IMG/VR virus record: IMGVR_UViG_3300012928_002096
Location: 1,549-65,548 of that record
Strand: one strand, 5' to 3'
Source: a virus
Length of the DNA: 64,000 nt
Shown here in pieces: positions 5,238-59,090 of this stretch. The notes beneath the pieces are model-generated. The model searched no databases, was not told where the DNA came from, and was given only the letters and a program-made list of their open reading frames with translations. The number at the start of each line of letters is the position of its first letter. The stretch's first letter is position 1. A program made the position numbers and the translations under genes.

Positions 5238-5264
5238 TAAATATATAAAACTATTGAGGATAAA

Positions 5265-5759: not shown

Positions 5760-5760
5760 T

Positions 5761-6357: not shown

Positions 6358-6386
6358 ATAAATACATTTGTATACAGGAGACTACA

Positions 6387-7037: not shown

Positions 7038-7056
7038 TATTTCTATTAAATAATAG

Positions 7057-8385: not shown

Positions 8386-8393
8386 ATTAAGGA

Positions 8394-12703: not shown

Positions 12704-12704
12704 T

Positions 12705-17518: not shown

Positions 17519-18299
17519 TTTTAACAAAGAAGAAATAATTAATCACGCACGTGAACACGGATGGTGGTTACAAAGAGATGTGCAAATGGATAGGAAGCAA
17601 TTTATGGAGTTTTGTAACCATATTGCTACACCTTGGTCGTGGAAAATACACGATATGCACGGAGAAGGCGATCTTAACGAAGAAGAAGTTGTAGATTGGT
17701 CAAGTGAAACTAGATTTATGAAACGTAGTTTGCCTTGGCACGCTGATAATCCTTGGAGTAAAGATTTTCAGTTTCCTTTACGTGCATTTTATGCAGTAAA
17801 TATACCTGATCCAAAAGACGGACCTTTAGAGTTTCTTAATCAAACAAAATGGTTTGAATCACTTGGCGAAAATCAAAAAGCAGACTTTAGATATATGAAA
17901 GTACTTGTGCAATGCTACAAAGGAAATTGCCAACCTTATTACGATGACTTTGTAAAAGTAAATCCAATTACAGGTAAAGAAAGTTTAAACTGGGGAAGTA
18001 AAGTTGTATACAGCGATGTATATGGGTTAGAACCTGATGAAGGACACGCACATAATCATTTTTCATTTACAATGGCAATTATGCGTGATAGGAATATTGT
18101 TCCTGATGAAGAAATATCTACTTGGTTTCAAGATATGATAGATAAAGGGCATCACGATATTGTTGAATTTAAAGAAGGTGATCTGCTTGTTAATGATAAT
18201 TGGACAACATTTCATTATAGAAGAACATTAACAAACCCTAACGAACGTTTACTTTATAGGAAAACATTGTTGCAACCATGGCAAAAATATATTGGCTAA
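17511..18299 (+). CDS. TauD/TfdA-family dioxygenase
   Basis: WHADN, NPITG, EFKEGDLLVNDNWTTFHYR...RLLYR; start moved to ATG 17511. Confidence 0.8.
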   Translation: MDNFNKEEIINHAREHGWWLQRDVQMDRKQFMEFCNHIATPWSWKIHDMHGEGDLNEEEVVDWSSETRFMKRSLPWHADNPWSKDFQFPLRAFYAVNIPDPKDGPLEFLNQTKWFESLGENQKADFRYMKVLVQCYKGNCQPYYDDFVKVNPITGKESLNWGSKVVYSDVYGLEPDEGHAHNHFSFTMAIMRDRNIVPDEEISTWFQDMIDKGHHDIVEFKEGDLLVNDNWTTFHYRRTLTNPNERLLYRKTLLQPWQKYIG

Positions 18300-18742
18300 C
18301 GATAAATGTAATTGGAAAAGATAATTATTTTAATGATTATCTCACAAATCCAGCAAAAAGATTTCAAACTGGTACAGGTAAAGCCTTAGGCAAAGATTAC
18401 TGGAAAATGTATGAACAGGCATATTTGTATGCTAAACACCAAGGACATATTATACTACGAGCAAAAGTTATTAACAAACGTAACGTGTTAAAAATATATC
18501 AAATATGGGATAGTAAAGATGTTCGTGAACAATGGGAACAAAAAGTTGATCCTAAATACTTTACTGCAACAGTACCACTTATTACATATCAATATCCTGT
18601 AAATGAAAAACAAAAAAACAAAATATTTGACTTAGTATTAAAAAGTAATAAAGTAATTTTACAGGCAGTAAGAGAAGATCATAGAACGCCAGGAATGACT
18701 ATAGGCGATCCTTTAAAGTTAGATGTACTTTATAAAACTTAA
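18278..18742 (+). CDS. Hypothetical protein, last gene of the enzyme island
   Basis: 154-aa ORF overlapping the upstream stop. Confidence 0.6.
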   Translation: MAKIYWLTINVIGKDNYFNDYLTNPAKRFQTGTGKALGKDYWKMYEQAYLYAKHQGHIILRAKVINKRNVLKIYQIWDSKDVREQWEQKVDPKYFTATVPLITYQYPVNEKQKNKIFDLVLKSNKVILQAVREDHRTPGMTIGDPLKLDVLYKT

Positions 18743-20673
18743 AGACCAAATTTACCAGATATATTACTGCTAAAAGGTTTCTCACTTTTCCATAATGGAC
18801 TATGCAAATATTTGTTTGTACTATCCCAAACACTATCATCTTCATCAAAATTTATTTCTGGAGAAACAGTGATAGTTCCTTGCATAGAACTATGGTTGCC
18901 ACAAATGTAATAAAAAGTTCCTGGTAATGTTGGTGTCCATTGTACGCCATTACCGCCGTATGAACCTTGACCTGTTGCGGCCGGAGTTGATACTTGATCG
19001 CCAGTACCAGTAGTTGCAGCATCTTTTATGTATATTGGATGTGTAACCCCTGCATTGTTTGTAATAGTAAGCGTATCTCCTACTTGTACAGCAATACTAT
19101 CATTATTACCTGATACACTACCATTTCTATCTGTTCCACTCATTACATATGCACTTGCTCCACTGTTTGTAGCAGTGATTGCATAAGATTCTGGTGTTGT
19201 TTTATCTGTGTATAGCTGATCACTTTTTGCATTTGCTTCAATATATGTTTTCATTTGTGCTGGTGTCATACCTGGATTTGCTTCTAATATACACGCAACC
19301 ATACCAGCAACTTGTGGTGATGCCATACTAGTACCTGATATTTTCATTAACTTATAATTGCTGTCTAATGGTGAATCAGGTCCGCCATATGTGCTGTATA
19401 ATGCACTTGTACCACCGTTATCAGTTGAACCTACACTTATAATTTCTGTACCTGGAGCAAATATATTTACACCCGGTCCTGCACAACTTGATTCGGCTTT
19501 TTGCTCTTTACTACCTGTATATGTATAATCTACATTTCCTACCATAAATGCATTTTCACTAAAAGGTGAACTACCGCGGAAGATAAATTCTTGAGAGCCA
19601 CTTCCAAATGCACACGTATCATCATAATGTGGGCCACTTGCTTTATCTATGTAATAATAACTGTTTCCTGCTGCTATACAAAATATAATACCAGCATCTA
19701 AACATTCTTGTAAGTCTGTATCTACACTAGCAACACGAACATTTATTCTTCTGTTTAGACCTATTACAGGCACAACACCTACATTAGCCCAAAGATTATT
19801 ACTACTGCTGCCATAATCTGAATAACTCCAACTGTTACCTAAAAAGGAACCACTAGCTGGTGTGCTTCTATTACCACCATAACCCCAACTTGCATTTACA
19901 ACTGTTGGACGTTTGAATCCTGTCTTAGGATCTATAGGCTTGTTGTTATGCCATCCTTTGATAACATCAAAACAATTAGTTACACTAATACCAGTACCCG
20001 AATCTCCTGTGCCTTCTAAACCAGCTACTTTTACAGAATATATGTGTGCATCTTTAGCCCAACCTTGTGTGCGGCCTGCTACTGTACCTGCACAATGACT
20101 TCCGTGACTGTCATAGTCTCTATAATGGTTAGCACTTTGTGATCCTGCAAGTCCACTTTCTGCGTACCAATCGATTTGCTTTACTCTGCTTATACCTGCA
20201 CTATCTGTAAATTCAGGATGATCAACTTGTAGTCCGCTGTCTTGTATTACAACGTCTACACCTTTTCCTGTAAGTGTATAATTAAATTGCTCTGTAATTG
20301 TTGCTGTACCATCAAAAACATCAAAGCCTTTAGCACATCTTATCAAACCCCAATTTAAATCGTTTGAGTTTCCGCTTTGAGTATTCTTTTTCCAATTAGC
20401 ACCACCTTGAAATGCATTAAACCCAATATCTATATCTTCTCTATCTTGTGGTGGTATTTGTACATCTACTACCCTATTATCACCTCTAAGTGCAGTAGCT
20501 TCTGCATCTGTTAATGCATAGTGTGTATTTCTTTGACTTAACGGTCTTGCATTTGCAACGTCTACTGTTCTATTTGGTATATCTCCAGCACCAGTTGATG
20601 CTATCATTTCTGCATTAAATGCATCGTAGTCTACACCTGCTTTAAGTGTGACAATATACTCTTTCTCGCTCAT
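18739..20673 (-). CDS. Subtilisin-like S8 serine protease with C-terminal cupredoxin-like domain
   Basis: Triad IQDSG / HGSHCAG / GTSMASP; HP...YYICGNHSSM type-1 Cu ligands. Confidence 0.9.
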   Translation of the reverse strand: MSEKEYIVTLKAGVDYDAFNAEMIASTGAGDIPNRTVDVANARPLSQRNTHYALTDAEATALRGDNRVVDVQIPPQDREDIDIGFNAFQGGANWKKNTQSGNSNDLNWGLIRCAKGFDVFDGTATITEQFNYTLTGKGVDVVIQDSGLQVDHPEFTDSAGISRVKQIDWYAESGLAGSQSANHYRDYDSHGSHCAGTVAGRTQGWAKDAHIYSVKVAGLEGTGDSGTGISVTNCFDVIKGWHNNKPIDPKTGFKRPTVVNASWGYGGNRSTPASGSFLGNSWSYSDYGSSSNNLWANVGVVPVIGLNRRINVRVASVDTDLQECLDAGIIFCIAAGNSYYYIDKASGPHYDDTCAFGSGSQEFIFRGSSPFSENAFMVGNVDYTYTGSKEQKAESSCAGPGVNIFAPGTEIISVGSTDNGGTSALYSTYGGPDSPLDSNYKLMKISGTSMASPQVAGMVACILEANPGMTPAQMKTYIEANAKSDQLYTDKTTPESYAITATNSGASAYVMSGTDRNGSVSGNNDSIAVQVGDTLTITNNAGVTHPIYIKDAATTGTGDQVSTPAATGQGSYGGNGVQWTPTLPGTFYYICGNHSSMQGTITVSPEINFDEDDSVWDSTNKYLHSPLWKSEKPFSSNISGKFGL

Positions 20674-24040: not shown

Positions 24041-24316
24041 CTATCTTGTATACTTCAAATGTGGACAAGCTAACATAAAAAAGCTCATCTCTTTGGATAA
24101 TTCAAATCCAACTGTTGTTACACTTGAAATTGTATCGTTTTGTATAGATACATTTTCTCCTAAAAAGTATCTTCCTGTTAAATTATCTTCAATCCAATCA
24201 GAAAGAACTGCTTCTATGTTATAGGTTTTTTCCAAGTCAACAGTCTCGAAAGTAGGAGGGCAAAAGTTTACCCTCCTTATACCTAAAACATCTAGTGGAT
24301 TGGTTTTAACCTTCAC
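24041..24316 (-). CDS. Hypothetical protein
   Basis: 91 aa, start overlaps the upstream stop (GTGA). Confidence 0.65.
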   Translation of the reverse strand: MKVKTNPLDVLGIRRVNFCPPTFETVDLEKTYNIEAVLSDWIEDNLTGRYFLGENVSIQNDTISSVTTVGFELSKEMSFFMLACPHLKYTR

Positions 24317-25635
24317 GCAGCCTCCTCATAATGTGCAGTCATACCAAAAGGACCTTCTAAGTTTTTATCGTGATGACTATGAATAACAAATAATGTATCA
24401 CAGTAATTAGGATCTCCCCAACTATCCCAAGCATAGCCATCTGTAAACATAATAAATTTCTTAGGCTCAATGCCTTGATCCTTCATATATGTCCAATTTA
24501 CTTCAAAGTCAGTGCCGCCACCACCTTTAACTTCATAGTCACTGATATCGTCTCCGTCATCTGAACTATAAAATGCTTCATTATATACCTTAGTATCAAA
24601 ACACCATATTGTAATTTTGTAATCTTTGTACTCGTCCATAATACCTTTAACTTCACTTAAGAAGTCTTTAGCTTGCTTATCACCTATACTACCTGACATA
24701 TCAATACTAATACAAAGATCAATAGTTTCTTCAAAGTTCATACCTGGAAGTATAGCACCACTTTGCCAACCTTTGCGATTTGGTCTTACAAAAGTGTAAT
24801 CACTTTTAATTGTGCTTTGAATCTGCTGACGTAGTAACTGACGCCAATTCATTTTAGGCTCAGTAAGTTCTTTTATCATACGTGTAATTTCAGCTGGAGT
24901 ATTACCAGCACCTGCTGCCTGTGCGGCCGCCATCACTGCTTCTTTTATTTCGTCTTTAATTTTTTGCTTTTCGCCTTCAGATAATGTTTGACCTTTTCCT
25001 TTGCCTTTACCATCATCGTTGCCTTCACCGTTGCTTGCTGGCCCTTCGCCCCACTCAAAATGCTCATCTAACATTTCACCTAATTGTTCAATGTCAATTT
25101 TTTCTGCATCTTGGTACAATTGGTCGTATACTTCTTCACTAGTCCAATCTAAGTATTTGAAGTCTTGGAAACATTCTACTAGCTTTGGCTTCATACCAAT
25201 TCTATCTCTAACTAGAATATTGTTAACAATATAATCACAAGCAACATTGTAAAGATAAGGATTACGATCTTCTCTTCTTGTAAGATGATCAAATACCATA
25301 TGTAAAATTTCGTGTGCGATAACAAATTCTATTTCTTTGTTATCCATTGCATTAAAAAACTGTGTATTGAAGTATAAGTTTTTACCATCTACTGCCGCAG
25401 TAGGAATAGTTTCGTCTGCCGCAACAATTCGTAAACGTGTTGCCATATTACCGAAAAAAGGATGCCTTAGAAGCAACCCAACTCTTGCAGTAATAATTCT
25501 ATCTAGTACAACCTTTTGCATTTCTTCTAATGCTTCTGGTGTAATATTAGGATCTGGTTCCCAATTCTTTAGTTTGCTTGCAGTTTTTTCTGTAGACATT
25601 TTCATTGCTACATAGTGCGGCATAAAATCTAACAT
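24313..25635 (-). CDS. DUF2201-type metallopeptidase + vWA domain protein (MoxR partner)
   Basis: TAAVDG, FVIAHEILH (HExxH), IDMSGSI MIDAS, GGGTDF, FTDG. Confidence 0.88.
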   Translation of the reverse strand: MLDFMPHYVAMKMSTEKTASKLKNWEPDPNITPEALEEMQKVVLDRIITARVGLLLRHPFFGNMATRLRIVAADETIPTAAVDGKNLYFNTQFFNAMDNKEIEFVIAHEILHMVFDHLTRREDRNPYLYNVACDYIVNNILVRDRIGMKPKLVECFQDFKYLDWTSEEVYDQLYQDAEKIDIEQLGEMLDEHFEWGEGPASNGEGNDDGKGKGKGQTLSEGEKQKIKDEIKEAVMAAAQAAGAGNTPAEITRMIKELTEPKMNWRQLLRQQIQSTIKSDYTFVRPNRKGWQSGAILPGMNFEETIDLCISIDMSGSIGDKQAKDFLSEVKGIMDEYKDYKITIWCFDTKVYNEAFYSSDDGDDISDYEVKGGGGTDFEVNWTYMKDQGIEPKKFIMFTDGYAWDSWGDPNYCDTLFVIHSHHDKNLEGPFGMTAHYEEAA

Positions 25636-25665
25636 AGTTGTCCTCTTTTTATCAGTGCTGTAATA

Positions 25666-25694
25666 GTTATAACATTATTTAATATGATTGTCAA
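25666..25694 (-). promoter_or_regulatory. sigma70-type (early) promoter with extended -10
   Basis: Minus strand TTGACA-N17-TATAAC, TG at -15/-14, upstream of the vWA gene. Confidence 0.75.
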
Positions 25695-25707
25695 CCTTTA
25701 AATAGAA

Positions 25708-25735
25708 TAGTGGACAGTACGAATACTGCCCACTA
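25708..25735 (-). terminator. Intrinsic terminator hairpin with UUCG loop
   Basis: Minus strand TAGTGGGCAGTA-TTCG-TACTGTCCACTA then TTCTATTT, just after the MoxR stop. Confidence 0.7.
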
Positions 25736-25744
25736 GTTATTGGC

Positions 25745-26833
25745 TCAAGCGTTTTGAGCAGCCTTGATATACTTGCCATATCGCGAGTGAAACTCATCAA
25801 AACAAGCAACTTCATCAGGATCAATTGGAAGATTGTATTGTGTAAGAGCAAGCTTTATACCCATTACAACTAATTCAGTCTCAAAATTATCCATTGCAAA
25901 CCTTAAAAAGTTATCAACTTTTTTGTCGAACTTCTTGTCATTTGCATCACTTGCTTCTTTAAGCTCATAACAAAGAGACACAGTTAAGGAATACATTGCA
26001 CTGATTTCCTGTGTTTTTATCTCTTTTACCTTGCCATCTAAAATATCGGATGGATTAGGCATACTTCCCGCAATCTTACGATGAGCCATAAATTTTACAG
26101 CCAAACCTTCACCTACAGCACCAGCAACAAGGTCTGTAGTTGTAGATTCATCTGAATCATCTTCGTCTAGTAGTTCAGAAACAAACGACCAACTACGTGG
26201 CGTTGCAAAAGAACGACTTGGCGATTTAGGATCAAAATCATAAAGATCCTGTTTTGCAAATTGCAAGTAGCCAACAACATCTTTGTGTTGCTTGTTGTCA
26301 ACTGCCCACTCAAACCAATCATCAAACAATACTGAAAGTTCTAAGTGTATAAAGCGATTTGCAAGCGGAGCAGGCATTCGATACGTAACACCTTTGTCTG
26401 CTTCGCGGTTACCAGCGGCAACGATAATAACGTTGTCTGGTAATTTGTATTGTCCTACTCGACGATTTAGAATCAACTGATATGCTGCCGCTTGTACAGC
26501 AGGAGGAGCTGAGTTCATCTCGTCAAAGAATACAACAATGTTATCATATGCTTTTGCGAATTCTTCGTCTGGCAATTCGCTAGGTGCGCCCCACACCATT
26601 TTGCCTTGGTTAGCATCAAAGTACGGAATACCTTTGATGTCTGTTGGTTCCCACAGCGATAATCTAATATCAATTAGATGGCTGTTTTTCATACTATCAG
26701 TAATCTGCCTAATAATATCAGACTTACCAATACCTGGAGGACCCCATAAAAACACAGGTCGCTTCTTTTTAAATGCCCGATAAATGCTTTTCTTAGCTCG
26801 ATTCGGACTAACTTGTCTTGTCATTGTATCCAT
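25745..26833 (-). CDS. MoxR-like AAA+ ATPase
   Basis: Walker A GPPGIGKS, Walker B FFDEMN, AAGNR, LANRF, TPRSW. Confidence 0.92.
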   Translation of the reverse strand: MDTMTRQVSPNRAKKSIYRAFKKKRPVFLWGPPGIGKSDIIRQITDSMKNSHLIDIRLSLWEPTDIKGIPYFDANQGKMVWGAPSELPDEEFAKAYDNIVVFFDEMNSAPPAVQAAAYQLILNRRVGQYKLPDNVIIVAAGNREADKGVTYRMPAPLANRFIHLELSVLFDDWFEWAVDNKQHKDVVGYLQFAKQDLYDFDPKSPSRSFATPRSWSFVSELLDEDDSDESTTTDLVAGAVGEGLAVKFMAHRKIAGSMPNPSDILDGKVKEIKTQEISAMYSLTVSLCYELKEASDANDKKFDKKVDNFLRFAMDNFETELVVMGIKLALTQYNLPIDPDEVACFDEFHSRYGKYIKAAQNA

Positions 26834-39842: not shown

Positions 39843-40230
39843 GTATTGCTCTCTTTTCTAAACTTAACTTATCTTTTTGACTCATTACATATGCGGCGCC
39901 TGCAAGAATTAAAATTGCGCCAGCTTCGGCAACTAGCACCCAAGGATTTGCGTCTTTACTGTGTAGCACAATTAATCTACACAATGCTGTCATTGCAATT
40001 ATAATAGGCAATGTAACAGGTATTCTGTTGCTAATAAAGTATGCACCAACCATACCTACAATCTCAGTATATATAAAAAGCAGAAATAAATCTGCAAGTT
40101 CTATCTTAAGATCCATAATCATAGAATATACATCTAAACCTGCCGCAACAACAGTAAGTATGCCTATTATAGAAAGCATACCTTTTTCTGTCATTACTGT
40201 AGTCCAGTGTAATCTATTTTTTTCTTGCAT
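39811..40230 (-). CDS. psiE: PsiE-family membrane protein
   Basis: ADLFLLFIYTEIVGM...IPVTLPIIIAMTALCRLIVL. Confidence 0.8.
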   Translation of the reverse strand: MQEKNRLHWTTVMTEKGMLSIIGILTVVAAGLDVYSMIMDLKIELADLFLLFIYTEIVGMVGAYFISNRIPVTLPIIIAMTALCRLIVLHSKDANPWVLVAEAGAILILAGAAYVMSQKDKLSLEKRAIREKGSNTNTE

Positions 40231-40958
40231 TATTTCTGTTGCGCTGGTAGAATGTAATCATATTTTGCCATACCACTGTCTACGCTAATTTTCATAGCAC
40301 CTTGATCAGTGATACTCATTGTTTTGTCACCATCTAAGTTTAGTATAGCAAGTGTTTGTGCAACTGGCCACGCCCAAGTATGTGTAAGTTTGCCTTCAAT
40401 ACCGTGTTCAAATGTAAATGAACCTGCGTGTGTTGCTTCGTCACCAAAGTAAAAGTTCAAGTTGTTATCTTCAGTCTTTACTTGGAACACTGTTTCTTCA
40501 CTGTGTGCGCCTGACATCAATTTCATACGTGCAATTGCTGCCATATTAGGCTGAATCTCAACATCATATGTGCTGACTTTGAACTTTACACTTTTTAGTT
40601 TTTCTTCAATAATTGCTTTGTTCATAAAACGATAATCATTTTCAAAATCACCCGATGCATTTTCAAAGTGTATGTGTGTTGGCATAACTTCGCCGTTGCG
40701 TTCTGCTTGTACAACTTCAATCTTTGCATTGTCTTTGTACTCTGGATTTTTCAAGTGATAATCTAATTTGCCAAGATCTGGCATACCAAATGTTCCGTTA
40801 AATTCACCAACTGGCGAATGTGTTGTTGCTGTCATAATCACACTACGATCATCAGCCATACTATCAATTTGAGTATCTTCTTCTGCTGTAACTTTCAGTG
40901 TAGTAATAAAACCTAGTCTGTGTGTATGACTCACAATGTCTTGTAGAATATCTTGCAT
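40230..40958 (-). CDS. Probable DNA polymerase sliding clamp (gp45-like)
   Basis: 242 aa, two-repeat alpha/beta pattern, ends YDYILPA; near DNA polymerase. Confidence 0.55.
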   Translation of the reverse strand: MQDILQDIVSHTHRLGFITTLKVTAEEDTQIDSMADDRSVIMTATTHSPVGEFNGTFGMPDLGKLDYHLKNPEYKDNAKIEVVQAERNGEVMPTHIHFENASGDFENDYRFMNKAIIEEKLKSVKFKVSTYDVEIQPNMAAIARMKLMSGAHSEETVFQVKTEDNNLNFYFGDEATHAGSFTFEHGIEGKLTHTWAWPVAQTLAILNLDGDKTMSITDQGAMKISVDSGMAKYDYILPAQQK

Positions 40959-40979: not shown

Positions 40980-41008
40980 ATTATACTAACTTTTGCTTTA
41001 TTTGTCAA
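40980..41008 (-). promoter_or_regulatory. Perfect-consensus sigma70 promoter
   Basis: TTGACA-AATAAAGCAAAAGTTAG-TATAAT. Confidence 0.85.
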
Positions 41009-41759
41009 GTGTTTGTTTCAATTTTGTGTTATAATAAACTGCTGCCGACAATGTATTTAGATTAATATTTTTTTCTGATGCCATTTTTAATAGAGCCTTT
41101 GTGTCTTTTGGAAAACACATTCCACCCCATCCACGTATACCTTCTTCTGGCCATACATAACTATGACTTGAACCTATACGTTTATCATCTGTAATACCTG
41201 CTTGCACTTCTTCATAGTCTAAATTATATGCTTTACAAAAATCAAAAATTTCATTGAAGAAACTTACTTTAGTTGCTAAGAAAGCATTTCTAAAATATTT
41301 TATAGCAATAGCTTCTTCTGGTGTAACAATGTTTATACGGCATTGAGGCCAATTAAAACTATATTGGTCACGCCAGTAATCTGTATCACCACTTAAAATA
41401 ATACAGTCTAATTGTTTAATATCATTCATATAGTTTTTTGCTCTAAGAAACTCTGGAGAAAAACATAATCTATGATTAGGAAAATTATTTTTTATATCTT
41501 GCCAGCCTTGTAAACTTATTGTGCTTTTGATTAATATAGGTGTTGTTTCATTACAAAGTTCTATAGTGCTGTACACAGCACTTACATCACAACTACCATC
41601 TTCTGCTGATGGAGTAGGTACACATATTACCACAGCACTTGTATTTGAAAAATCAGCATATTTGTCTTTAGGTGGATCGTGTATTTCAATTTCTCTTCTA
41701 TGGTCTTTGAATAGTAATTCGTATGCCTGTCCAACAAATCCGTATCCTGCTATAATCAT
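40998..41759 (-). CDS. ugd: UDP-glucose/GDP-mannose 6-dehydrogenase-like (N-terminal and central domains only)
   Basis: IAGYGFVG, ICVPTP, IKSTI, FSPEFLR, KYFRNAFLATKV, GWGGMCFPKD. Confidence 0.85.
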   Translation of the reverse strand: MIIAGYGFVGQAYELLFKDHRREIEIHDPPKDKYADFSNTSAVVICVPTPSAEDGSCDVSAVYSTIELCNETTPILIKSTISLQGWQDIKNNFPNHRLCFSPEFLRAKNYMNDIKQLDCIILSGDTDYWRDQYSFNWPQCRINIVTPEEAIAIKYFRNAFLATKVSFFNEIFDFCKAYNLDYEEVQAGITDDKRIGSSHSYVWPEEGIRGWGGMCFPKDTKALLKMASEKNINLNTLSAAVYYNTKLKQTLDK

Positions 41760-42469
41760 TGTGCTAACTTCGCTTCCTGAAAGTATCCAAGTCTTTCCCA
41801 AGTATCACGATAATCTTTAACATTGAAACAACGTTTTGTATCTAGCTTGACTGCTAATGGCCAATCATTACCACCTTCAACAATTTTGTCACCAAAGAAA
41901 TAAATTTTATCATTCTTGTTAAAATCTTCTAAGATTTGACTTTTATCTCCACCTTTACGATATATGTCTATTCCTGTTTCGCCACCTATAGTTGCAGTTA
42001 TATCAGGAAATTCTAAATTAATTTGGAAAGCAATACTTTCACGTTCTTTGTTTTGCAAATCGTGTTGTATATAAAGTTTACGTTCACCTAGTGTGCAATT
42101 ACGTCCTACTATACTAAAATTAATTGTACCTGTTCTTTCTTCTATATGATTACCTGTACGTAATGGAAAATTACTTGCTTGTAACCAACCGTGCATTAAA
42201 TTATACAATTCTTTAGGAGCATCAAATGTTTTACTTGCTACATTTTGTCCTTTTTTGTAGACATCATTGCCACTGCAATTATAACAAGACTCAACATTTT
42301 CACAAATATCTTCACCAAGCTGTTCGACTGTCTTATTATAATCGCTACCAGTTACTAACCATACTTTATTATGTGTAATAAATGATTTAAAAAATGTTTT
42401 AAACTCTGGATGAATAGTTTGTCTACTTGGTGTAAGTGTGCCGTCAACATCGAATATAAATTTATTCAT
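41756..42469 (-). CDS. Phosphomannomutase (eukaryotic-type, HAD-IIB)
   Basis: FDVDGTLT, VTGSD, IEERTGTINFSIVGR, FFGDK..EGGND. Confidence 0.88.
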   Translation of the reverse strand: MNKFIFDVDGTLTPSRQTIHPEFKTFFKSFITHNKVWLVTGSDYNKTVEQLGEDICENVESCYNCSGNDVYKKGQNVASKTFDAPKELYNLMHGWLQASNFPLRTGNHIEERTGTINFSIVGRNCTLGERKLYIQHDLQNKERESIAFQINLEFPDITATIGGETGIDIYRKGGDKSQILEDFNKNDKIYFFGDKIVEGGNDWPLAVKLDTKRCFNVKDYRDTWERLGYFQEAKLAQ

Positions 42470-42876
42470 TATACTTCACATACTCTCTTTCTTAAATCAC
42501 TAGTGCTAAATCTATGATCACGTTTATTAAAATACAAATCTATTTCACGCTTACGACAAATGTCTTTACCTGTAAAATCTTTGTCTCTGTATTCTTCTCC
42601 AAGTATTCTAACATCTATATGATACATTGTCAATATATCTTCTAGGTCTTTTTCAGTGCCATAAGGAATAATTTCATCAACATACTTTACACCTTTTAAT
42701 TGTGTATAGCGTTCGACAATAGTTTGCACAGGAGCATTTTTTTCTGATCGATCTACACTAGGATCCATTTGTAATGCACATATTAAATAATCGCATTGTT
42801 CTTTTGCTTCACGTAACATTTGTACGTGTCCTGCGTGTAATAAATCAAATGTTGAACAAGTAAATCCTACTTTCAT
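42469..42876 (-). CDS. TagD-like cytidylyltransferase
   Basis: FDLLHAGH (HIGH-type), ERYTQL...VDEII, RFSTS. Confidence 0.88.
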   Translation of the reverse strand: MKVGFTCSTFDLLHAGHVQMLREAKEQCDYLICALQMDPSVDRSEKNAPVQTIVERYTQLKGVKYVDEIIPYGTEKDLEDILTMYHIDVRILGEEYRDKDFTGKDICRKREIDLYFNKRDHRFSTSDLRKRVCEV

Positions 42877-43217
42877 TAATGATTCCGCCTACCATCAAAT
42901 GCACAAACAAAGTAAAGTTCTTGGTCTTTACCTTGATACATATCAGATTCTACTCTATGATGTATACCATCTTTAATCAATACAACATCACCAGGACCAA
43001 CTGCCATAGGCTCATCATTTAGATACATTGTGCCTTTACCTCTAATAAAGAAATAAATTTCTTCTTGTCCTTTGTGTATATGTCCTGACGTAGATTTGCC
43101 AGGCTTCATTGTTGTACTACTTAATACTAAATTTTGTAACAGTGTGTTATCTTTAACAATGTATCGTTCGTCTTGTTTAGCGATAACTCCACCAATATCT
43201 TGTATATCTACTTTCAA
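42876..43217 (-). CDS. Cupin-domain protein (mannose-6-phosphate isomerase-like)
   Basis: GHIHKGQEEIYFFIRG...GDVVLI..GIHHRV. Confidence 0.85.
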   Translation of the reverse strand: MKVDIQDIGGVIAKQDERYIVKDNTLLQNLVLSSTTMKPGKSTSGHIHKGQEEIYFFIRGKGTMYLNDEPMAVGPGDVVLIKDGIHHRVESDMYQGKDQELYFVCAFDGRRNH

Positions 43218-43498
43218 AAGTCTATCTCCCTTCCTTTATATTCCCAAGTTCCATATCTAGTTGGTTCGGCTTCTTTTGGCCCGCCATATTCTTTAGCTTT
43301 TTCTTCTGTAACTTTTTGTTCAGGTATATCAGGGTCTTTACGTGCATATTTTATATCACAATATCCACAAACAACATAATGTCCATCGTGTGGTATTCTA
43401 AGATAAACTTTTGGGTGGTCATTGTTATCTCCACTACACGCAACACTGTCGCCATCTATGTAAATAATGCGTTCTTCAAATCCTTCGATTCTTTCCAT
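43214..43498 (-). CDS. zf-CHCC (NDUFS6-like) + DUF1674 (SdhAF4-like) fusion
   Basis: VACSGDNNDHPKVYL...VVCGYC followed by EYGGPKEAEPTRYGTWEYKGREIDF; GGAG RBS before ATG 43498. Confidence 0.8.
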   Translation of the reverse strand: MERIEGFEERIIYIDGDSVACSGDNNDHPKVYLRIPHDGHYVVCGYCDIKYARKDPDIPEQKVTEEKAKEYGGPKEAEPTRYGTWEYKGREIDF

Positions 43499-43499
43499 A

Positions 43500-46163
43500 T
43501 TAACTCCATTCAAATAAATTGTTAAATGTTGTTTTTTGCTTTGTGCTTTCTAAGTCATATTTCAACACACCAATTAAGTTGTCTAGTTTGTTGTCAATAA
43601 TAACTTCTTCCATTGCATCGCCATCAAAAGGAAGCTCTTTAAACCAATCAGGAAGTCTTAGTTGATCTGTTGGATAAGCAACAGAAGTATATCCTAATGG
43701 ATTTTGTTTCAGTTTACAAACAATAACTTTCATACCATCTACAATTTCTTGGGAATATTTATCACCATTCATACGTTTCAATGTATTCCAGTTGATGCTT
43801 GCTCTTACGTGTCCAGGCATATTTGCTTTGCCTTGCTTTTCTTCTAGTCGTTGATAATGTCCAATCTTGTTTGCACGTTTGGGTGAACCTTTCTCAAATC
43901 CTGGACGTTCTTTAAACTCACGCCTAAATTCACTTATACTTTCTAGTAATTCTTTTTCGGGCTGTACTGCTAATACCATATCAAGCAATGTTTTCAAATA
44001 GTTTTGCATAAACACTGGAGTATCACTACGCTTTAAGTCCAAGCCCATAGCTTTAACTTTACCTAATGCACCATCCTTATCTTTTCTATCACCTTCTAAG
44101 TCATACACTCGCACTGCATAACGTTTCTTTGTAATAAACAAGCCTGTGTCTGCAACAACTTCTCTTGCGGCAGCAATAACCTCACTACGTGGGCGAGGAC
44201 AATGAAATGCGTCACGCATAAAATCTGGAAATGTTGTGTTTGCTTGTTCGCATAACTGGTCATACAATGTAATTACATTATCTTTACCCCAAGGCACAGT
44301 ACCAGCAGTAATTTCTTCTTCAAGTACAGGATACGCACTAAAGTAAACAGAGTCTGTATCACCATATATAATTGCTTTACCTACGTGATCATATTCGCCT
44401 GTAATAATCTTATTCACTTCACTTGCCATATGCTTTGCAATTTGTCTGCCAGTTAGTGTTGTTGACTGTCCAATACGTTTATCAAAAAATCTACAGCCTG
44501 GATTCAAAATAGCACCATACAAACTGTTCAAGTTAATCTTTTTGACAAGTTGTCTTTTGTCCCAAAATGCTATTTCTGTTTCGTTGCCTGCATCAATTGC
44601 TTTACGCATTTTTGCTTGTAATTCTTTACGCTCTGCATACCAACGTTTCAGCAAACCTGGAATAACACCTTCGACTTCTGTTGTAAACACAGTACCGTTA
44701 GCACTAAGCATCCACGGTTGATGGCTATCAAAAATAAGTTTGTATATTTCTGCACCACTTAGCACGTGGCTTGTACCATCTTCTAAATCTAATGTAAGTG
44801 CAACGTCTTTGCGTTGTTCCATTACAGCATCATATTCTAATGTAGCAAACTTACCTTCCCAACTTGCCGCAAAACTTTTCTTTTCAAGTGTTTGTGCATT
44901 GTGTAAAAACTCTTCAGTCAAGTCTGGACGTATTTGTCCAATAATAGTTTCTGGAGCCATATTCATTGCACGAATAATACTTGGATATAGACTGTTCAAG
45001 TCCATACTACCAATCCACTTATGTACACCTTTTTTAGGATACGCAACATAAGCACCTGCCGCGGCAGTTTGCCCTTCGTGTTGTACTCTGTTAGGTGCTT
45101 GCATACCTCTTCTGTGTGCTTCATTAACAATTGCTTGCTCTGTAACTGCAACTGCTCCTGCTGTTGTTTGTAATAACACAGTATTATCGTGTGCAATTTC
45201 ATTTGCAAGATCAATAAAGCGTAACTTCTTATCAATTTTATCTAGTAGTGCAACGTCTTGTCTATTGTATTCAATAAACTTTTTAAAGTCGTTGTTGTAA
45301 AGTTGATCAAGTGTGCCTTCATACACAGTCTTGTTTTCACCAACTTCCATTTCACCAATAGCATCAAGTCTGTATGTGTGACGTTCTTCATATGTATATT
45401 TGCGATACAGTTCAAGATAGTCCATATGCACTCTACCTATTGTATCAAACGTTTCAGCAGTTTTGCCAAACTTTTCAAACTCTCTACGTCTTGGAAGTTG
45501 CTTCCACAAACAAAAGCGCCTAGTGTCATCTTTGCTCAACACCCGTGAAACACGATTTACAGTGTAAGGAATATCATAACCTTCACTGTTCCAGCCGCTC
45601 AATATATCTGCATCTTCTATAACATCAAGAAATGCTTGTAGCATATCTCCTTCATTTTCATACAAATATGTATTATCAAAATCTGCACATTCTGCTTGTG
45701 CTTCTTCCATAGTTAGTGTTTTGGGCGGCAATGCAAATGTTACCAATGCATCTAACCATTGTAAATGCACAGTAATAGCAGTAATTGGCATAAAAGGATC
45801 GCTTGGATCAGCAAAGCCTCTATCTGGATCAAAATCAGTCTCAATATCAAAAAAGCAAACATTTAGTTTAGGAGCATCTTGGTTGAGATAGTGTTCACTC
45901 AAACATTGAAATATTGGATTTACATCCGACTCAAACATTTTTTTGCCTTTGTTAATGGCAAGTTCTTTTCTAAAATCTTTTGTATTTTTACAAACTACAC
46001 GTTGTAGTGGATCTCCATAAATGCTTTTGTATTTGCCACGTGGATCTTCATAGTAAAATGTATACTTTGCTTGATATTCAGTAAAATGCCTTTTACCATC
46101 CTTGCGTTCTACTGCACGGATAATATCTGCATCTCTATCAAAAAAAGCGTCTACGTATGGCAT
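43500..46163 (-). CDS. polB: Family B DNA polymerase
   Basis: Exo FDIETD, NSEGYD; Pol DLNSLYPS, KINLNSLYG, YGDTDS. Confidence 0.97.
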   Translation of the reverse strand: MPYVDAFFDRDADIIRAVERKDGKRHFTEYQAKYTFYYEDPRGKYKSIYGDPLQRVVCKNTKDFRKELAINKGKKMFESDVNPIFQCLSEHYLNQDAPKLNVCFFDIETDFDPDRGFADPSDPFMPITAITVHLQWLDALVTFALPPKTLTMEEAQAECADFDNTYLYENEGDMLQAFLDVIEDADILSGWNSEGYDIPYTVNRVSRVLSKDDTRRFCLWKQLPRRREFEKFGKTAETFDTIGRVHMDYLELYRKYTYEERHTYRLDAIGEMEVGENKTVYEGTLDQLYNNDFKKFIEYNRQDVALLDKIDKKLRFIDLANEIAHDNTVLLQTTAGAVAVTEQAIVNEAHRRGMQAPNRVQHEGQTAAAGAYVAYPKKGVHKWIGSMDLNSLYPSIIRAMNMAPETIIGQIRPDLTEEFLHNAQTLEKKSFAASWEGKFATLEYDAVMEQRKDVALTLDLEDGTSHVLSGAEIYKLIFDSHQPWMLSANGTVFTTEVEGVIPGLLKRWYAERKELQAKMRKAIDAGNETEIAFWDKRQLVKKINLNSLYGAILNPGCRFFDKRIGQSTTLTGRQIAKHMASEVNKIITGEYDHVGKAIIYGDTDSVYFSAYPVLEEEITAGTVPWGKDNVITLYDQLCEQANTTFPDFMRDAFHCPRPRSEVIAAAREVVADTGLFITKKRYAVRVYDLEGDRKDKDGALGKVKAMGLDLKRSDTPVFMQNYLKTLLDMVLAVQPEKELLESISEFRREFKERPGFEKGSPKRANKIGHYQRLEEKQGKANMPGHVRASINWNTLKRMNGDKYSQEIVDGMKVIVCKLKQNPLGYTSVAYPTDQLRLPDWFKELPFDGDAMEEVIIDNKLDNLIGVLKYDLESTKQKTTFNNLFEWS

Positions 46164-54869: not shown

Positions 54870-55559
54870 CTATTTATCTGTAAAAACTAATTGCTCTATC
54901 CTTTGTATATTATCCCCAACTAACATTTGAGCTATTAGTAATGTTTTAGCGTCACGTACATAAAAGTAGTAACCTTTAACATATCTACTATTTGTAATAC
55001 TTTCTTTGGCTTTGTCACCTATCTTTGCCAGGTGTGGATTTTCGTCTATCCATTTTACTAAGCTAGGTGTTCCTAACTTCTTTCCAAGTGTTACTTTATA
55101 CTGATATTGCGGTTCTTTGTCAACTAAAATAACATTTTTATTTTCTTGTAAAAATTGTATTTGTAAAGGATCGGGTTCATAAAACTCCACCCAATTTTCT
55201 TTGATATTATTTGATAAACTTGTTAAGAACTTCCTATCATTGCTGTATAAATTGAGTCTATGCATTTCAACTCGCACTAAGTAATCTACATCATTCCTTA
55301 TTAAATGTCTGTAAATTGTTATTGCATCATAATAATGTTTTGTATCAATAGATTCTTTAAATCTACTGCCAACAGGTAATGTTATTTGAGGTTTTCTAAA
55401 ATTATGATATCTGTTACATTCATCTAGCTTGCCTTTTGCATAACTTAATGTGCCTTCTTTTTGAAACTCAGTACGGAAAAAAGTAGCACATTGATTACGT
55501 ATACAAAGTTTGTAAAGATACTTGTTATAATGTAACTTTTTACTTTCATACAGTTTCAT
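54870..55559 (-). CDS. Hypothetical protein
   Basis: 229-aa ORF coupled to clpA. Confidence 0.7.
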   Translation of the reverse strand: MKLYESKKLHYNKYLYKLCIRNQCATFFRTEFQKEGTLSYAKGKLDECNRYHNFRKPQITLPVGSRFKESIDTKHYYDAITIYRHLIRNDVDYLVRVEMHRLNLYSNDRKFLTSLSNNIKENWVEFYEPDPLQIQFLQENKNVILVDKEPQYQYKVTLGKKLGTPSLVKWIDENPHLAKIGDKAKESITNSRYVKGYYFYVRDAKTLLIAQMLVGDNIQRIEQLVFTDK

Positions 55560-57792
55560 TTTCTTCTACCAAACAATCTAATTTGATTTCATCTTCTCTG
55601 AAATCGATTGTAACACTTCCGCCATTTTTAAGTTCACCAAAAAGTATTTTTTTACTTAGAGGACGTTTAATTTGTGCATCAATTACACGCTGTAACGGTC
55701 TTGCACCCATTTTAGGATTGAATCCTTTGTCAACTAAGAAGTCAAGAGCTTCGTCAGTAATGTCAATAGCAATATCTTTTTCTTGTACTTGTTGTTTTAG
55801 CTCTAGTAAAAACTTACCTACAATTTTCATCATTACTGGCTTGTCAAGTTTACCAAATGTAATAACACCATCTAGCCTGTTTCTAAACTCAGGTGGAAAA
55901 TATTTTTTAAAGTCAGTATCTTCATAGTCTTTATCGCTATCTTCACCAAAACCAATTGCATTTTTCTCAGCATCTTGTGACCCTAAGTTAGTAGTTAGTA
56001 TAAGTGTAGCATTACGTGCATCTGCTTCTTTACCGTTACTGCCTGTTACTCTACCATTGTCCATAATTTGTAACAAAATAGTGCTGATGTCTGGATGTGC
56101 TTTTTCTATTTCATCTAAAAGTAATACACAGTTTGGATTTTCTTGCAGTTTAGTAATAAGTTGGCCTGCGTCTTCTTCAAAACCTACATAACCTGGAGGC
56201 GAGCCAATCAGTTTACTAATACTATGCTTTTCTTGGAATTCACTCATATCAAAACGCACAAGTTTTACACCCAAATGATGTGCTAGTTGCTTGCTTAGTT
56301 CTGTTTTACCAACACCTGTTGGACCCATAAACACAAAACTACCAATTGGTTTGTTTTCACTTTTTAGTCCTGCTTGTGCTACTAAGATTTTATCAACAAT
56401 ATCTTCGATAGCATTGTCTTGACCATACACAACTGTTTTTAGATTATCTTCTAAGTTTGCTAAGTTTTCGCTTTCACGTTCTTTTACCTGTTCTTCAGGC
56501 AAGTTAATCATTTTTGCTAATTCAAACTGTATACTTTCTTCAGTTACAACTTTATTTTCAACTTGATCATTTACTTTGAATCTACTACAAGCAACATCAA
56601 TCAAATCTATTGCTTTATCAGGCAATTTTTTATCAGTTTGATATTTTACGCTAAGTTTTACGGCTGCGTTTATTGCTTCTTCTGTAATAGTAGTATTATG
56701 ATAACTTTCATAATATTGTTTAATACCTTTAAGTATTCTTACAGTGTTTTCTTGTGAAGGTTCGTCAACATTTACCCTTTGAAATCTTCTCATCAACGCA
56801 CGATCTTTTTCAAAGAACTTACGATACTCTTCCCAAGTTGTACTTGCAACAACTTTCAAGTTACCTTTAGTCAAAGCAGGCTTTAACATATTTGCCATAT
56901 CATTTGCACTGTTACTACCGCTTGCACCAGCACCACTTATCATATGTGCTTCGTCGATAAACATAATAGTTTTGCCTTTTTTCTGCAATGCAGAAATAAC
57001 CAACTTGAAACGCTCTTCAAAATCTCCTCTATACTTTGATCCTGCTAACATACTGCCAATATCCAATGTATAAACATTGTATTCTTTTAAAAACTCTGGT
57101 ACACTTCCGTGGACAATATTGTATGCAAGTCCTTCAGCAATAGCAGTCTTACCCACACCTGGTTCACCAACCATTAGCACATTACTTTTGCTTCTTCTAC
57201 CAAGTGCAAGTGCTACTTGCTCTAGTTCTTCACTGCGTCCAATAATAGGATCAATTTTATTATTTTTAACAAGACTGTTTAAGTCGCTTGTAAACTCTTT
57301 TAGTGCTTTATTAGCAATACCCATATTTTCTTGTGGGTTGTCATCGTCACTTCTATCAAATTCTGTGCTAATATAGTCTGCAAATTGCTGTTTATTTACA
57401 CCAGCCTGCTGTGTAATAAAATACGCATAACTTTTCTTTTCACTTAGTATACTTAGAAATACATCTGATATTTCTATCATATTACGCATACTAAACAATA
57501 CTTGTGTAAACGCTCTATTCAATACACGTTCTACTGTTTGTGTCTTAGCAGGTTTATATTCTTTACCTTTCTCAACTAAAATATTATCAAGTTTAGTTCT
57601 GAGATAATTTTCCAAATTCTTTTTAATATATTCAACGTCTGTGCCAAATCCTGTGACAAGTTCACTGAAATTATTTTCACACAACATTGCATATAGTAAA
57701 TGTTCTAATGTCACATACTCGTGACGTAGTTTTACTGCGTCTTTGACTACTTTATCAAATACAAGTTGTAATTCTTTAGACGGTTCTACCAT
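55546..57792 (-). CDS. clpA: ATP-dependent Clp protease ATP-binding subunit ClpA
   Basis: Clp_N (HEYVTLEHLL), two AAA modules (GEPGVGKT, GPTGVGKT), IGF ClpP-docking loop (NAIGFG), MGARPL. Confidence 0.95.
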   Translation of the reverse strand: MVEPSKELQLVFDKVVKDAVKLRHEYVTLEHLLYAMLCENNFSELVTGFGTDVEYIKKNLENYLRTKLDNILVEKGKEYKPAKTQTVERVLNRAFTQVLFSMRNMIEISDVFLSILSEKKSYAYFITQQAGVNKQQFADYISTEFDRSDDDNPQENMGIANKALKEFTSDLNSLVKNNKIDPIIGRSEELEQVALALGRRSKSNVLMVGEPGVGKTAIAEGLAYNIVHGSVPEFLKEYNVYTLDIGSMLAGSKYRGDFEERFKLVISALQKKGKTIMFIDEAHMISGAGASGSNSANDMANMLKPALTKGNLKVVASTTWEEYRKFFEKDRALMRRFQRVNVDEPSQENTVRILKGIKQYYESYHNTTITEEAINAAVKLSVKYQTDKKLPDKAIDLIDVACSRFKVNDQVENKVVTEESIQFELAKMINLPEEQVKERESENLANLEDNLKTVVYGQDNAIEDIVDKILVAQAGLKSENKPIGSFVFMGPTGVGKTELSKQLAHHLGVKLVRFDMSEFQEKHSISKLIGSPPGYVGFEEDAGQLITKLQENPNCVLLLDEIEKAHPDISTILLQIMDNGRVTGSNGKEADARNATLILTTNLGSQDAEKNAIGFGEDSDKDYEDTDFKKYFPPEFRNRLDGVITFGKLDKPVMMKIVGKFLLELKQQVQEKDIAIDITDEALDFLVDKGFNPKMGARPLQRVIDAQIKRPLSKKILFGELKNGGSVTIDFREDEIKLDCLVEENETV

Positions 57793-58312
57793 TTACTTTC
57801 CTTTTATATTTTTTATGTCTTTTCTTTTCTGCTAAGTTTAATTTTAATTTAGACACTCTATTAATGAATTGCACACCTTGTAAATGATCATACTCGTGTA
57901 AGAATATTCTTGCATCAATATCATCAAATTTTGTTTCTACGTGTATTACGCTTTTACCATCTGGTGTAATAGTATCAAATTCTACCATACAACTCATAGG
58001 ACGTCTTACTTTCAAAAACAAGTCAGGATGACTCAAACAACCTTCAACACCTAGTTCAAGTTCTTTACTCAAACCTTTAATCATTGGATTAATTACTGTA
58101 GTTATGTCGCCATATTGTTTATTAAGCATAGTTCTCATAACAAAAATTTGTCCGTCAAATCCTACTTGATTTGCACTGAGTCCTAAACCGTGATGCTTAC
58201 GCATTACGTCCATCATATCAAATGCAATTGGCGCCGGATGTATATTTGTAATATCAAACGGTCGTACAGAATTTTCTAACATAACATCAGGTGCGAGAAT
58301 TAAGTTCATCAT
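57776..58312 (-). CDS. def: Peptide deformylase
   Basis: GLGLSANQVG, EGCLS, HEYDHLQG. Confidence 0.95.
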   Translation of the reverse strand: MMNLILAPDVMLENSVRPFDITNIHPAPIAFDMMDVMRKHHGLGLSANQVGFDGQIFVMRTMLNKQYGDITTVINPMIKGLSKELELGVEGCLSHPDLFLKVRRPMSCMVEFDTITPDGKSVIHVETKFDDIDARIFLHEYDHLQGVQFINRVSKLKLNLAEKKRHKKYKRKVNGRTV

Positions 58313-59090
58313 TTAACTGTCTTATCCTATCTAAATCTTCATACCTATCTAATTTAGGCGTAGTTCCTTTTACTTCAACATACACGTTGCCTGTACGTTG
58401 TGTTTTATAATCTTTGATTCCGTAACCTGGAATACTTAATATTGTGCCTGGATGTGTGCCTGGAGGAATCTTAATAGCAATTGTGCCTCCTCCTAATTTG
58501 TCTATAGTTGTTTCTGTGCCTAAAATAAGTTCTAATACATTTATACTACAAAATGTTCTCAAATGCAACCTATCTCTTACATATTTTGGATGACTTTTAA
58601 CATTTATTTTAGCAAGTAAGTTTCCCCTTGGTAGTTGTTTAAAATAGTTGTCACCTAAGCCTGCAAGTTGTAATATTTGTCCGCTTTCAATGCCTGCTGG
58701 TACGTGAATATTTGCAACTACTTCTTCACCAGAACGTAACTGATATCTGCCAATAATATTTTTGCCTTGTATAACATCTTCTAAATTAACATTTACATTA
58801 ATAGTAACATCTTGATTTCGCCTTTGTACTCTTCTGCCTTGGTGAAAAAACGCTCCAAAAATATCATTCATATTTTGACTGTTGAAATTCATTTCTGGTC
58901 TAGGAGGAGCATCATAATGAGCCTTTTTATCAGGATCTTTTAGCGTGTCATATGCTTCATTTATTTCTTGAAACATTTTTTGGTCACCACCTTTGTCAGG
59001 GTGATGCTTCATTGCTAATTTTTTATATGCTCGTTTGAGTTCTTCAGGAGATGCTGATTTGTCAACACCTAACCGCTTGTAATAGTCCAT
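58287..59090 (-). CDS. dnaJ: DnaJ/CbpA-type co-chaperone (no Zn finger)
   Basis: J domain YKKLAMKHHPDKGG; DnaJ_C region. Confidence 0.9.
   Translation of the reverse strand: MDYYKRLGVDKSASPEELKRAYKKLAMKHHPDKGGDQKMFQEINEAYDTLKDPDKKAHYDAPPRPEMNFNSQNMNDIFGAFFHQGRRVQRRNQDVTINVNVNLEDVIQGKNIIGRYQLRSGEEVVANIHVPAGIESGQILQLAGLGDNYFKQLPRGNLLAKINVKSHPKYVRDRLHLRTFCSINVLELILGTETTIDKLGGGTIAIKIPPGTHPGTILSIPGYGIKDYKTQRTGNVYVEVKGTTPKLDRYEDLDRIRQLNDELNSRT

Follow-up and report, generated by a model that had tools for sequence, protein, structure and literature searches.

An NDUFS6-like zinc ribbon joined to an SDHAF4-type C-terminal tail in a protein of a marine jumbo phage

A single short gene encodes a zf-CHCC and a DUF1674 domain

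Here, we describe a phage gene whose 94-residue product (P0001) combines two protein families known from the biogenesis of respiratory complexes I and II, namely zf-CHCC, the family of the complex I subunit NDUFS6, and DUF1674, the family of the complex II assembly factor SDHAF4. The gene lies at 43214..43498 on the minus strand of the window, i.e., of the 64,000-nucleotide stretch analysed here (positions 1,549 to 65,548 of IMG/VR virus record IMGVR_UViG_3300012928_002096). It is an uninterrupted open reading frame (ORF) of 94 codons followed by TGA, with the ATG at 43498-43496 and the stop codon at 43216-43214. A TTG codon upstream of this ATG would lengthen the ORF by 5 codons, however, we favour the ATG because the N-termini of homologues found in other genomic contexts agree with it. 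As the first-pass annotation of this DNA had noticed, the gene is placed directly downstream of a DNA polymerase gene. The latter (43500..46163, minus strand) encodes a family B enzyme of 887 amino acids with DNA_pol_B_exo1 and DNA_pol_B domains, as identified by Pfam on the syntenic gene, and its stop codon is separated from the fusion ATG by 1 nucleotide (TAA T ATG). The Shine-Dalgarno-like GGAG at 43504..43507 (minus strand), located 5 nucleotides before the ATG and within the last polymerase codons, may serve the translation of the fusion gene.

The same annotation had read both domains from the letters alone, and both of them were recovered when the protein was compared with the Pfam profiles. 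The zf-CHCC profile (PF10276) matched residues 17-51 with 38.3 bits against a curated cut-off of 27, covering profile positions 2-37 of 37, and the DUF1674 profile (PF07896) matched residues 54-94 with 46.4 bits against a cut-off of 23.5, covering positions 10-50 of 50. When the complete 67-kb record was scanned in six frames, each family was found at one locus, and it was the same ORF for both. Neither PHROGs nor NCBIfam contained an informative family for the fusion protein.

Three parts of the protein can be distinguished, all of them encoded on the minus strand. The first one is the NDUFS6-like zinc ribbon (residues 17-51, 43346..43450), supported by Pfam, by sequence matches in the PDB, by an AlphaFold2 model searched with Foldseek, and by the ratio of nonsynonymous to synonymous substitution rates (dN/dS). 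It is followed by a linker (residues 52-68, 43295..43345), which was delimited from protein and DNA alignments and is predicted to be disordered; its residues 56-68 are missing from alleles of 80-81 amino acids. The last part is a C-terminal peptide of the SDHAF4/DUF1674 type (residues 69-94, 43217..43294), assigned by Pfam and by alignment to chain 8dyd_C. The AlphaFold2 model contains four strands, with a predicted local distance difference test (pLDDT) score of ~72 over residues 11-53 and of less than 50 over the linker and the tail, including residues 59-75.

The zinc ribbon resembles the complex I subunit of Alphaproteobacteria and mitochondria

The ribbon had been described as C-x7-HPKVYL-x10-CGYC. 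The second part of this motif is present as stated, while the actual spacing between the first two ligands is C-x6-H. The putative ligands C21, H28, C44 and C47 fall in register with the ligand positions of 2jrr, 2jvm and 8qby_R, and six of the seven distinct fusion alleles have all four of them, the exception being the metagenomic protein P0003, in which Tyr replaces C47. Sequence matches in the PDB included 8qby_R (a Paracoccus complex I subunit, E 2.9e-6), the alphaproteobacterial nuclear magnetic resonance structures 2jrr and 2jvm, and many NDUFS6 chains. When the model was compared with the PDB by Foldseek, the top 33 matches were all NDUFS6/zf-CHCC chains, with a root-mean-square deviation of 1.5-2 Å over ~50 residues and E-values which are modest (4e-3 to 6e-2) because the domain is so small. 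The Paracoccus subunit, Pd-NDUFS6, is a Zn-binding β-sandwich located on NDUFS1 and NDUFS8 which stabilises the N-module, and its Asp48 is linked to NDUFS8 through a Ca ion (PMC11522691). The counterpart of this residue in the phage protein is Asp48, directly after CGYC.

Compared with NDUFS6, NUMM and Pd-NDUFS6, the phage domain thus shares the CHCC ligands, the Asp that follows CGYC, a size like that of the bacterial proteins (~60 amino acids, no N-terminal domain) and a predicted β-strand fold. It differs in its shorter Cys-His loop (x6 versus x8-9), in forming a clade of its own that is 40-50% identical to the cellular copies, and in being phage-encoded and extended by the SDHAF4-type tail.

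Both families had been called typical of Alphaproteobacteria, and an alphaproteobacterial host had been proposed on that ground. We found a zf-CHCC match in 79 of the 101 Gammaproteobacteria genomes sampled (78 of 100 if the unpublished genome G446 is left out), thus the presence of the family alone cannot name the host. The type of the domain is more telling. Gammaproteobacterial proteins (loci L186-L201) represent a distinct sequence type, DLPLSCP...LWNSHPRV...CPYCG, which is separated at 100/100 in a tree built from 52 finger cores. The phage sequences of this tree cluster together (76/78) beside a small-genome marine alphaproteobacterium, and this placement, supported at 94/95, should be read with caution as long branches are involved. 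By its sequence, the phage ribbon is of the alphaproteobacterial/mitochondrial type.

As for the carrier itself, the source record is an IMG/VR virus contig of 67 kb for which CheckV gives a completeness of 19%, implying a genome of ~350 kb. The phage polymerase and matches to PHROGs support it as a bona fide phage, and the related phage G513, a complete IMG/VR genome (342,607 bp, terminal repeats, 100% complete), has a polymerase 59% identical to that of the window. The carrier is a marine jumbo phage. Its polymerase is 50% identical to that of Sinorhizobium phage Phosso and 48% to that of Agrobacterium phage Atu_ph07, and the G+C content of the window is 34.9%. The pointers to a host are the sequence type of the finger, its position in the tree, the nearest cultured relatives of the polymerase, and the local similarity of the finger to proteins of Pelagibacteraceae and of another small-genome marine alphaproteobacterium. 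Taken together, they are suggestive of an alphaproteobacterial host, and suggestive only.

Genes encoding the finger without the tail are frequent in marine phage contigs and occur there in varied contexts. In the finger-core tree the 94-residue fusion groups with finger-only proteins and the 80-residue fusion with a different finger-only protein, which indicates that the tail was gained or lost more than once. A syntenic relative also encodes the finger only, and it stops where the short fusion alleles run on into the tail.

The start of the gene 1 nucleotide past the polymerase stop, an arrangement compatible with translational coupling, raises the question whether the ribbon is unrelated to complex I and serves the replication or transcription of phage DNA instead. 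Some finger-only copies do adjoin Toprim-like genes, and zf-CHCC is not confined to organisms with supernumerary complex I subunits. However, the finger is also found in sugar-modification islands, arrays of small ORFs and other contexts unrelated to one another, no PHROG or DNA-binding family matched it, and it groups with the alphaproteobacterial type proven as a complex I subunit and not with generic ribbons. We thus regard a role in replication or transcription as very improbable.

The tail retains the SDHAF4 contact residues and defines a phage subtype

Residues 66-94 of P0001 align to the C-terminus of human SDHAF4 (8dyd_C, E 5.7e-6) in such a way that E70, E78, D93 and F94 correspond to E84, E92, D107 and F108. 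These four residues are invariant in all fusion alleles, the equivalents of E70 and E78 are also invariant in 15 tails of the subtype described below, and D93-F94 immediately precede the stop codon, i.e., they form the free C-terminus. The significance of these positions is known from the human protein. SDHAF4 is disordered alone, and its last 34-43 residues become ordered on SDHA, where D107 mimics the dicarboxylate, F108 occludes the site, and E84 and E92 contact R171 of SDHA; mutating E84, E92, D107 or F108 impairs binding or the displacement of SDHAF2. The terminal Asp-Phe is strictly conserved in homologues and needed to displace SDHAF2, and SDHAF4 bound to SDHA occludes the substrate site in a position that clashes with SDHB binding (PMC10784507).

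As the first-pass annotation had pointed out, the last residue of the DUF1674 motif is also that of the protein, and Thr takes the place of the usual Asp. A second departure accompanies the first one: the canonical GDWE and GRC.DF are replaced by GTWE and GREIDF. We therefore sorted the tails into a T/E type (GTWE...G[RK]E[IV]DF) and a D/C type (GDWE...GRC.DF). Among the collected proteins, 41 tails were of the T/E type, 62 of the D/C type and 7 were other D forms. The 71 cellular loci obtained from a GTDB species-genome scan and from alphaproteobacterial genomes gave 0, 70 and 1, respectively, and the 57 IMG/VR loci gave 37, 9 and 11. The two changes covary perfectly, as none of the collected proteins pairs T with a residue other than E, or E with D. 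Eight further cellular tails that we read were all of the D type, and the DUF1674 protein of SAR11 itself ends with GDWEKKGIVSDF. The T/E subtype has so far been seen in phage or metagenome sequences only.

In comparison with SDHAF4/Sdh8, the phage tail thus shares a motif of ~26-40 residues ending in Asp-Phe at the C-terminus, equivalents of E84, E92, D107 and F108, and predicted disorder when alone. It is distinguished by the Thr/Glu subtype, by a folded zinc ribbon in place of a disordered N-terminus, and by being encoded by a phage.

The exchange of an invariant Asp for Thr could mark a dominant-negative plug. According to such an explanation, the T/E tail would plug SdhA at its dicarboxylate site and block its hand-over to SdhB, the finger would compete with the NDUFS6-like subunit of the host, and both respiration and the tricarboxylic acid (TCA) cycle would be throttled or redirected. 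The occlusion of the substrate site and the clash with SDHB reported for SDHAF4 (PMC10784507) are in line with this, and so is the combination of retained binding residues with a changed invariant Asp and a covarying Cys-to-Glu replacement, a pattern which we would consider typical of viral mimics. The variety of proteins carrying the tail (see below) would also suit a self-sufficient inhibitory peptide. On the other hand, SDHAF4 binds unassembled SdhA only, so that existing complex II would escape, and D-type tails are encountered in viral contigs too (20 of the 57 loci). We consider this explanation unlikely, although it deserves serious attention.

The tail is combined with many carriers and is thus a portable, promiscuous C-terminal module. 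In phages, the carriers recognised by Pfam are the NDUFS6-like finger (10 loci), Lipase_3, Asp/Arg-hydroxylase, NUDIX and two unknown domains; in addition, many proteins of 37-84 amino acids with unrelated N-termini end with it. In Alphaproteobacteria, D-type tails are fused to phosphoglycerate kinase in two genomes (L265/G269 and L267/G105) and to a class I S-adenosylmethionine (SAM) methyltransferase in one locus (L269, G051). The latter enzyme may resemble the complex I assembly factor NDUFAF5, but Pfam, PDB and Atlas gave no confirmation, returning generic methyltransferases only. In these cellular fusions, as in the phage one, the tail forms the very end of a protein with an unrelated folded domain, but they have D-type tails and metabolic enzymes as carriers, and none of them contains zf-CHCC. 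The tail is always last in its proteins because a free C-terminus is needed.

Such a range of carriers (in phages Lipase_3, Asp/Arg hydroxylase, NUDIX, unknown domains and small peptides, in Alphaproteobacteria phosphoglycerate kinase and a methyltransferase) would also be expected if the tail were a general C-terminal tag whose partner is not SdhA but another enzyme with this flavoprotein fold (e.g., L-aspartate oxidase or fumarate reductase) or some adaptor of a different kind, with the finger being one cargo of many. Nevertheless, SDHA is the sole experimentally defined partner and all residues that matter there are conserved in the phage tail; furthermore, the N-termini of cellular DUF1674 proteins are themselves variable and disordered, so varied carriers are normal for this family. 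A general tag is therefore quite unlikely in our opinion.

A further possibility combines the mobility of the tail with the SdhA site. The T/E tail might be a portable viral "SdhA plug" of ~26-40 residues, bolted by marine phages onto many proteins and capturing or re-purposing the SdhA of the host, with the NDUFS6 mimic acting on complex I in parallel. We find this rather unlikely. If true, it would mean an unrecognised class of phage factors acting on the assembly of respiratory complexes and not on electron carriers.

We also predicted the complex of SAR11 SdhA (27-row alignment, from which the unpublished genome G043 was left out) with tail residues 52-94. The score was 0.00, and it counts neither way on binding.

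Other loci gave observations of their own. The IMG/VR loci of the tail fusions to Lipase_3, Asp/Arg-hydroxylase-like, unknown and NUDIX proteins are L209, L226, L228, L249-L251, L250/L254 and L247, and the carriers at these loci also include a weak MazG-like match. The sequence YPDGYS.EW is present near the N-terminus of both tail-only (P0202, P0201) and finger-only proteins (P0229, P0020), which hints at a further module common to the two groups.

The fusion occurs in phage contigs and is maintained by purifying selection

We searched for the fusion in several large collections. Full-length relatives were found in metagenomic or viral contigs only, and no longer forms of the protein appeared among them. 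Among 175 HMMER matches in 1.84 billion representative proteins the fusion was absent, each match covering one half. A pattern scan of 185,579 GTDB species genomes returned matches to the DUF1674 half only; the patterns were specific, hence this is a test of close relatives. Out of 401 alphaproteobacterial genomes, 268 gave a match, the two halves lying apart from each other, and among the 150 matches listed there was none that covers both. This agrees with the earlier statement that the two families are normally encoded by separate genes. The full-length protein had no tblastn match among 50,697 GenBank phage records at E<=1e-3 and only a spurious one, to a terminase, at E<=10; megablast with the surrounding 5 kb gave no match either, in a collection that may lack records close to the window. 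The possibility that the fusion is common in hosts and was simply transduced, raised together with the initial proposal, is contradicted by its restriction to phage contigs.

In the literature we found no paper linking DUF1674, SDHAF4 or NDUFS6 to phages in a search that was incomplete, nor are they mentioned in a survey of pelagimyophages. Within the literature covered, the occurrence of these families in phages, their fusion, the phage-specific tail subtype and the tail as a movable module all appear to be new, while both families themselves are already known.

The fusion is present in at least 10 independent IMG/VR contigs, and three allele types can be recognised. An identical 94-residue protein is encoded on 78 public contigs, the longest of 213,808 bp, and the members of this 94-residue type are 91-97% identical to P0001. 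The short type (80-81 amino acids) is ~70-80% identical to P0001 and is devoid of 13 linker residues. The third allele (L219) is 51% identical and has, after a shared DPD, its own linker of similar length. The genomic backbones of all three types have polymerases at least 90% identical and cytidylyltransferases 96-99% identical. It can thus be concluded that diverged versions of one architecture are swapped at a single locus. The 94-residue allele was also found at an unrelated locus (L012).

Differences between the alleles are mostly synonymous. For the tail, the proportion of nonsynonymous differences (pN) was 0-0.07 and that of synonymous differences (pS) was 0.18-1.0, and for the finger dN/dS was 0.02-0.27. 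Both halves are therefore read as protein and are constrained, i.e., they are under strong purifying selection.

Most of a 2-kb stretch was recovered from 19 DNA runs of ~10 marine studies (one run is possibly the source of the record), and DNA contigs from two other studies span the whole gene with 0 differences. These data, together with the independent contigs and the mostly synonymous differences, speak against an assembly chimera or a sequencing error, while a recently transduced host gene is opposed by the fact that no cellular genome searched has either the fusion or the T/E tail. As far as the data reach, these trivial explanations are refuted, and we give them hardly any credence. In addition, a 160-nucleotide contig from a metatranscriptome library, corresponding to window positions 43229-43384 (residues ~39-90), is 100% identical to the gene and crosses the finger-tail junction. 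Since DNA can occur in such libraries, we treat it as a weak hint of expression.

A possible role in sustaining the respiratory dehydrogenases of the host

Does the pairing of a complex I domain with a complex II domain have a meaning? It recurs in three forms: as a fusion (in three diverged alleles), as adjacency and as separate genes. Adjacency is seen at L257:2127-2551, where a finger-only zf-CHCC gene overlaps by 4 nucleotides the following gene, whose product combines a membrane helix and a Cys motif with a tail of the T/E type. The N-terminus of this tail protein matched no family in Pfam or NCBIfam, and the NqrM identity considered for it was dropped for that reason. Separate genes are present in G513, with exactly one finger gene (at 131 kb) and one tail gene (at 94 kb, on a hydroxylase-like protein). 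As the tail is promiscuous, its pairing with the complex I finger is not unique but one of several arrangements, and a mechanical coupling need not follow from the fusion. In our reading, the phage lineage keeps both modules, and the fusion is one convenient arrangement which by itself is no proof of joint action.

We tentatively propose, with a confidence that stops a little short of calling it probable, that the protein consists of two host-mimicking docking modules on a disordered linker and acts in the manner of an auxiliary metabolic gene (AMG) product, sustaining the respiratory dehydrogenases of the host. The first module (residues ~10-53), an NDUFS6-type ribbon, would dock on host complex I as the 62-residue Paracoccus subunit does, at NuoG/NuoI. 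The second one (residues ~69-94), equivalent to the functional core of SDHAF4, would fold onto free flavinylated SdhA of the host, with the terminal Asp-Phe entering the dicarboxylate site and the two upstream Glu contacting an Arg of SdhA. Neither G513 nor the record of the window (G000) contains FAD_binding_2 or another SdhA-type flavoprotein, so the partner of the tail would be the SdhA of the host, and any complex I partner would likewise come from the host. The fusion would most likely provide co-expression of the two modules, and not a physical bridge between the complexes. The net role would most likely be AMG-like, to keep or protect the two respiratory dehydrogenases of the host during infection, and we infer that the sign of the effect is supportive. 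In part, the gene shows what characterises an AMG: it is a metabolic gene of host origin, it belongs to a bona fide phage, and it is both conserved and subject to selection.

Several observations weigh against this proposal. The tail is also attached to unrelated enzymes, both in phages and in cells, which weakens the link between complex I and complex II drawn from the fusion. At two positions that covary, with Thr instead of the invariant Asp of GDWE and Glu instead of Cys, it is unlike every cellular homologue that we examined, and these changes could represent an altered function rather than simple mimicry. Five finger-only phage records, mostly fragments, contained no DUF1674 elsewhere. 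Homologues of NDUFA12 and NDUFS4 were found neither in G513, nor in the record of the window, nor in the other phage records searched. Most prokaryotic complex I enzymes are reported to have no supernumerary subunits (PMC11522691), and zf-CHCC is widespread in Gammaproteobacteria, thus the family is unlikely to be tied to complex I everywhere. Finally, the one zf-CHCC homologue of SAR11 that we examined (L176:215-448, G118, Pelagibacteraceae; 78 amino acids) has neither the first Cys nor the His ligand. The C-terminal half of this homologue is very similar to the phage proteins (GYVVCGYC).

Phage genes acting on electron transport are already known as AMGs, e.g., those for plastocyanin, ferredoxin and PTOX in cyanophages. 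The fusion gene resembles them in that a marine phage carries a small, host-derived part of an energy-conserving electron transport chain. However, the cyanophage products are electron carriers or oxidases, whereas the fusion protein is a mimic of an accessory subunit and of an assembly factor of respiratory dehydrogenases. The sequences thus point to phages acting on host respiratory enzymes. If the proposed binding is true, these would be, according to the literature searched, the first phage mimics of a complex I accessory subunit and of a complex II assembly factor, and the auxiliary metabolism of viruses would reach beyond carriers and enzymes to the level at which the respiratory chain is assembled. 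In that case the T/E variant with its many carriers would also be a collection of naturally occurring variants in which the binding of SdhA by SDHAF4, and its release, could be studied. Since both families are well studied, with solved structures and mapped residues, the hypothesis is directly testable with peptides and point mutants. As the gene is common in marine metagenomes (the 19 runs mentioned above), any effect on respiration could matter ecologically.

Neighbouring genes and other features of the window

Downstream of the fusion gene lies a Cupin_2 gene (42876..43217, minus strand; 113 amino acids, 47.3 bits in Pfam), whose TTG start overlaps the fusion TGA (TTGA). It is followed on the same strand by a sugar-nucleotide module with genes for a cytidylyltransferase (42469-42876), a phosphomannomutase (41756-42469) and a protein similar to UDP-glucose/GDP-mannose dehydrogenases (40998-41801), all three assigned by Pfam and by synteny in L001, L013 and L167. 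The slot 3' of the fusion gene is variable in the relatives. In the window, L001 and L013 the tail gene is followed by a cupin, and in L044 and L214 by a different one; L010 and L011 have a 164-residue ORF, the N-terminus of which is a candidate short-chain dehydrogenase; and in L016-L018 the slot is empty. We therefore treat it as a variable island, and the idea of the cupin and the fusion as a functional pair was dropped, as other alleles have a different gene or none in this place. A cupin-less joint (42877->43212) is present in run X4, and TGAAAGTAG was found at both borders of the cupin gene (junctions 43212-43217 and 42872-42880).

Our scan found no tRNAs. The promoter and terminator scan gave counts at chance level; a perfect sigma-70 consensus (TTGACA, 17 nucleotides, TATAAT) is located at 41008-40980 (minus strand), upstream of a 242-residue gene (40230-40958).

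Farther from the fusion gene, the plus-strand block at 235-18300 encodes five radical SAM proteins (one with SPASM), a nitroreductase, a DHO_dh-like protein, a fatty-acid desaturase, an Asp/Arg β-hydroxylase and two TauD/TfdA dioxygenases. By its gene content, it looks like a cluster for peptide or small-molecule modification. A 644-residue protein encoded at 18742-20673 (minus strand) combines a subtilase S8 domain with a plastocyanin/azurin-like copper-binding domain, and at 24316-26833 a DUF2201 metallopeptidase/VWA protein is paired with a MoxR-like AAA protein. The minus strand at 55549-59090 encodes a ClpB/ClpA-like double-AAA+ chaperone (748 amino acids) and a DnaJ protein with J and C-terminal domains (267 amino acids), and the presence of these two phage chaperones is consistent with a theme of proteostasis and assembly.

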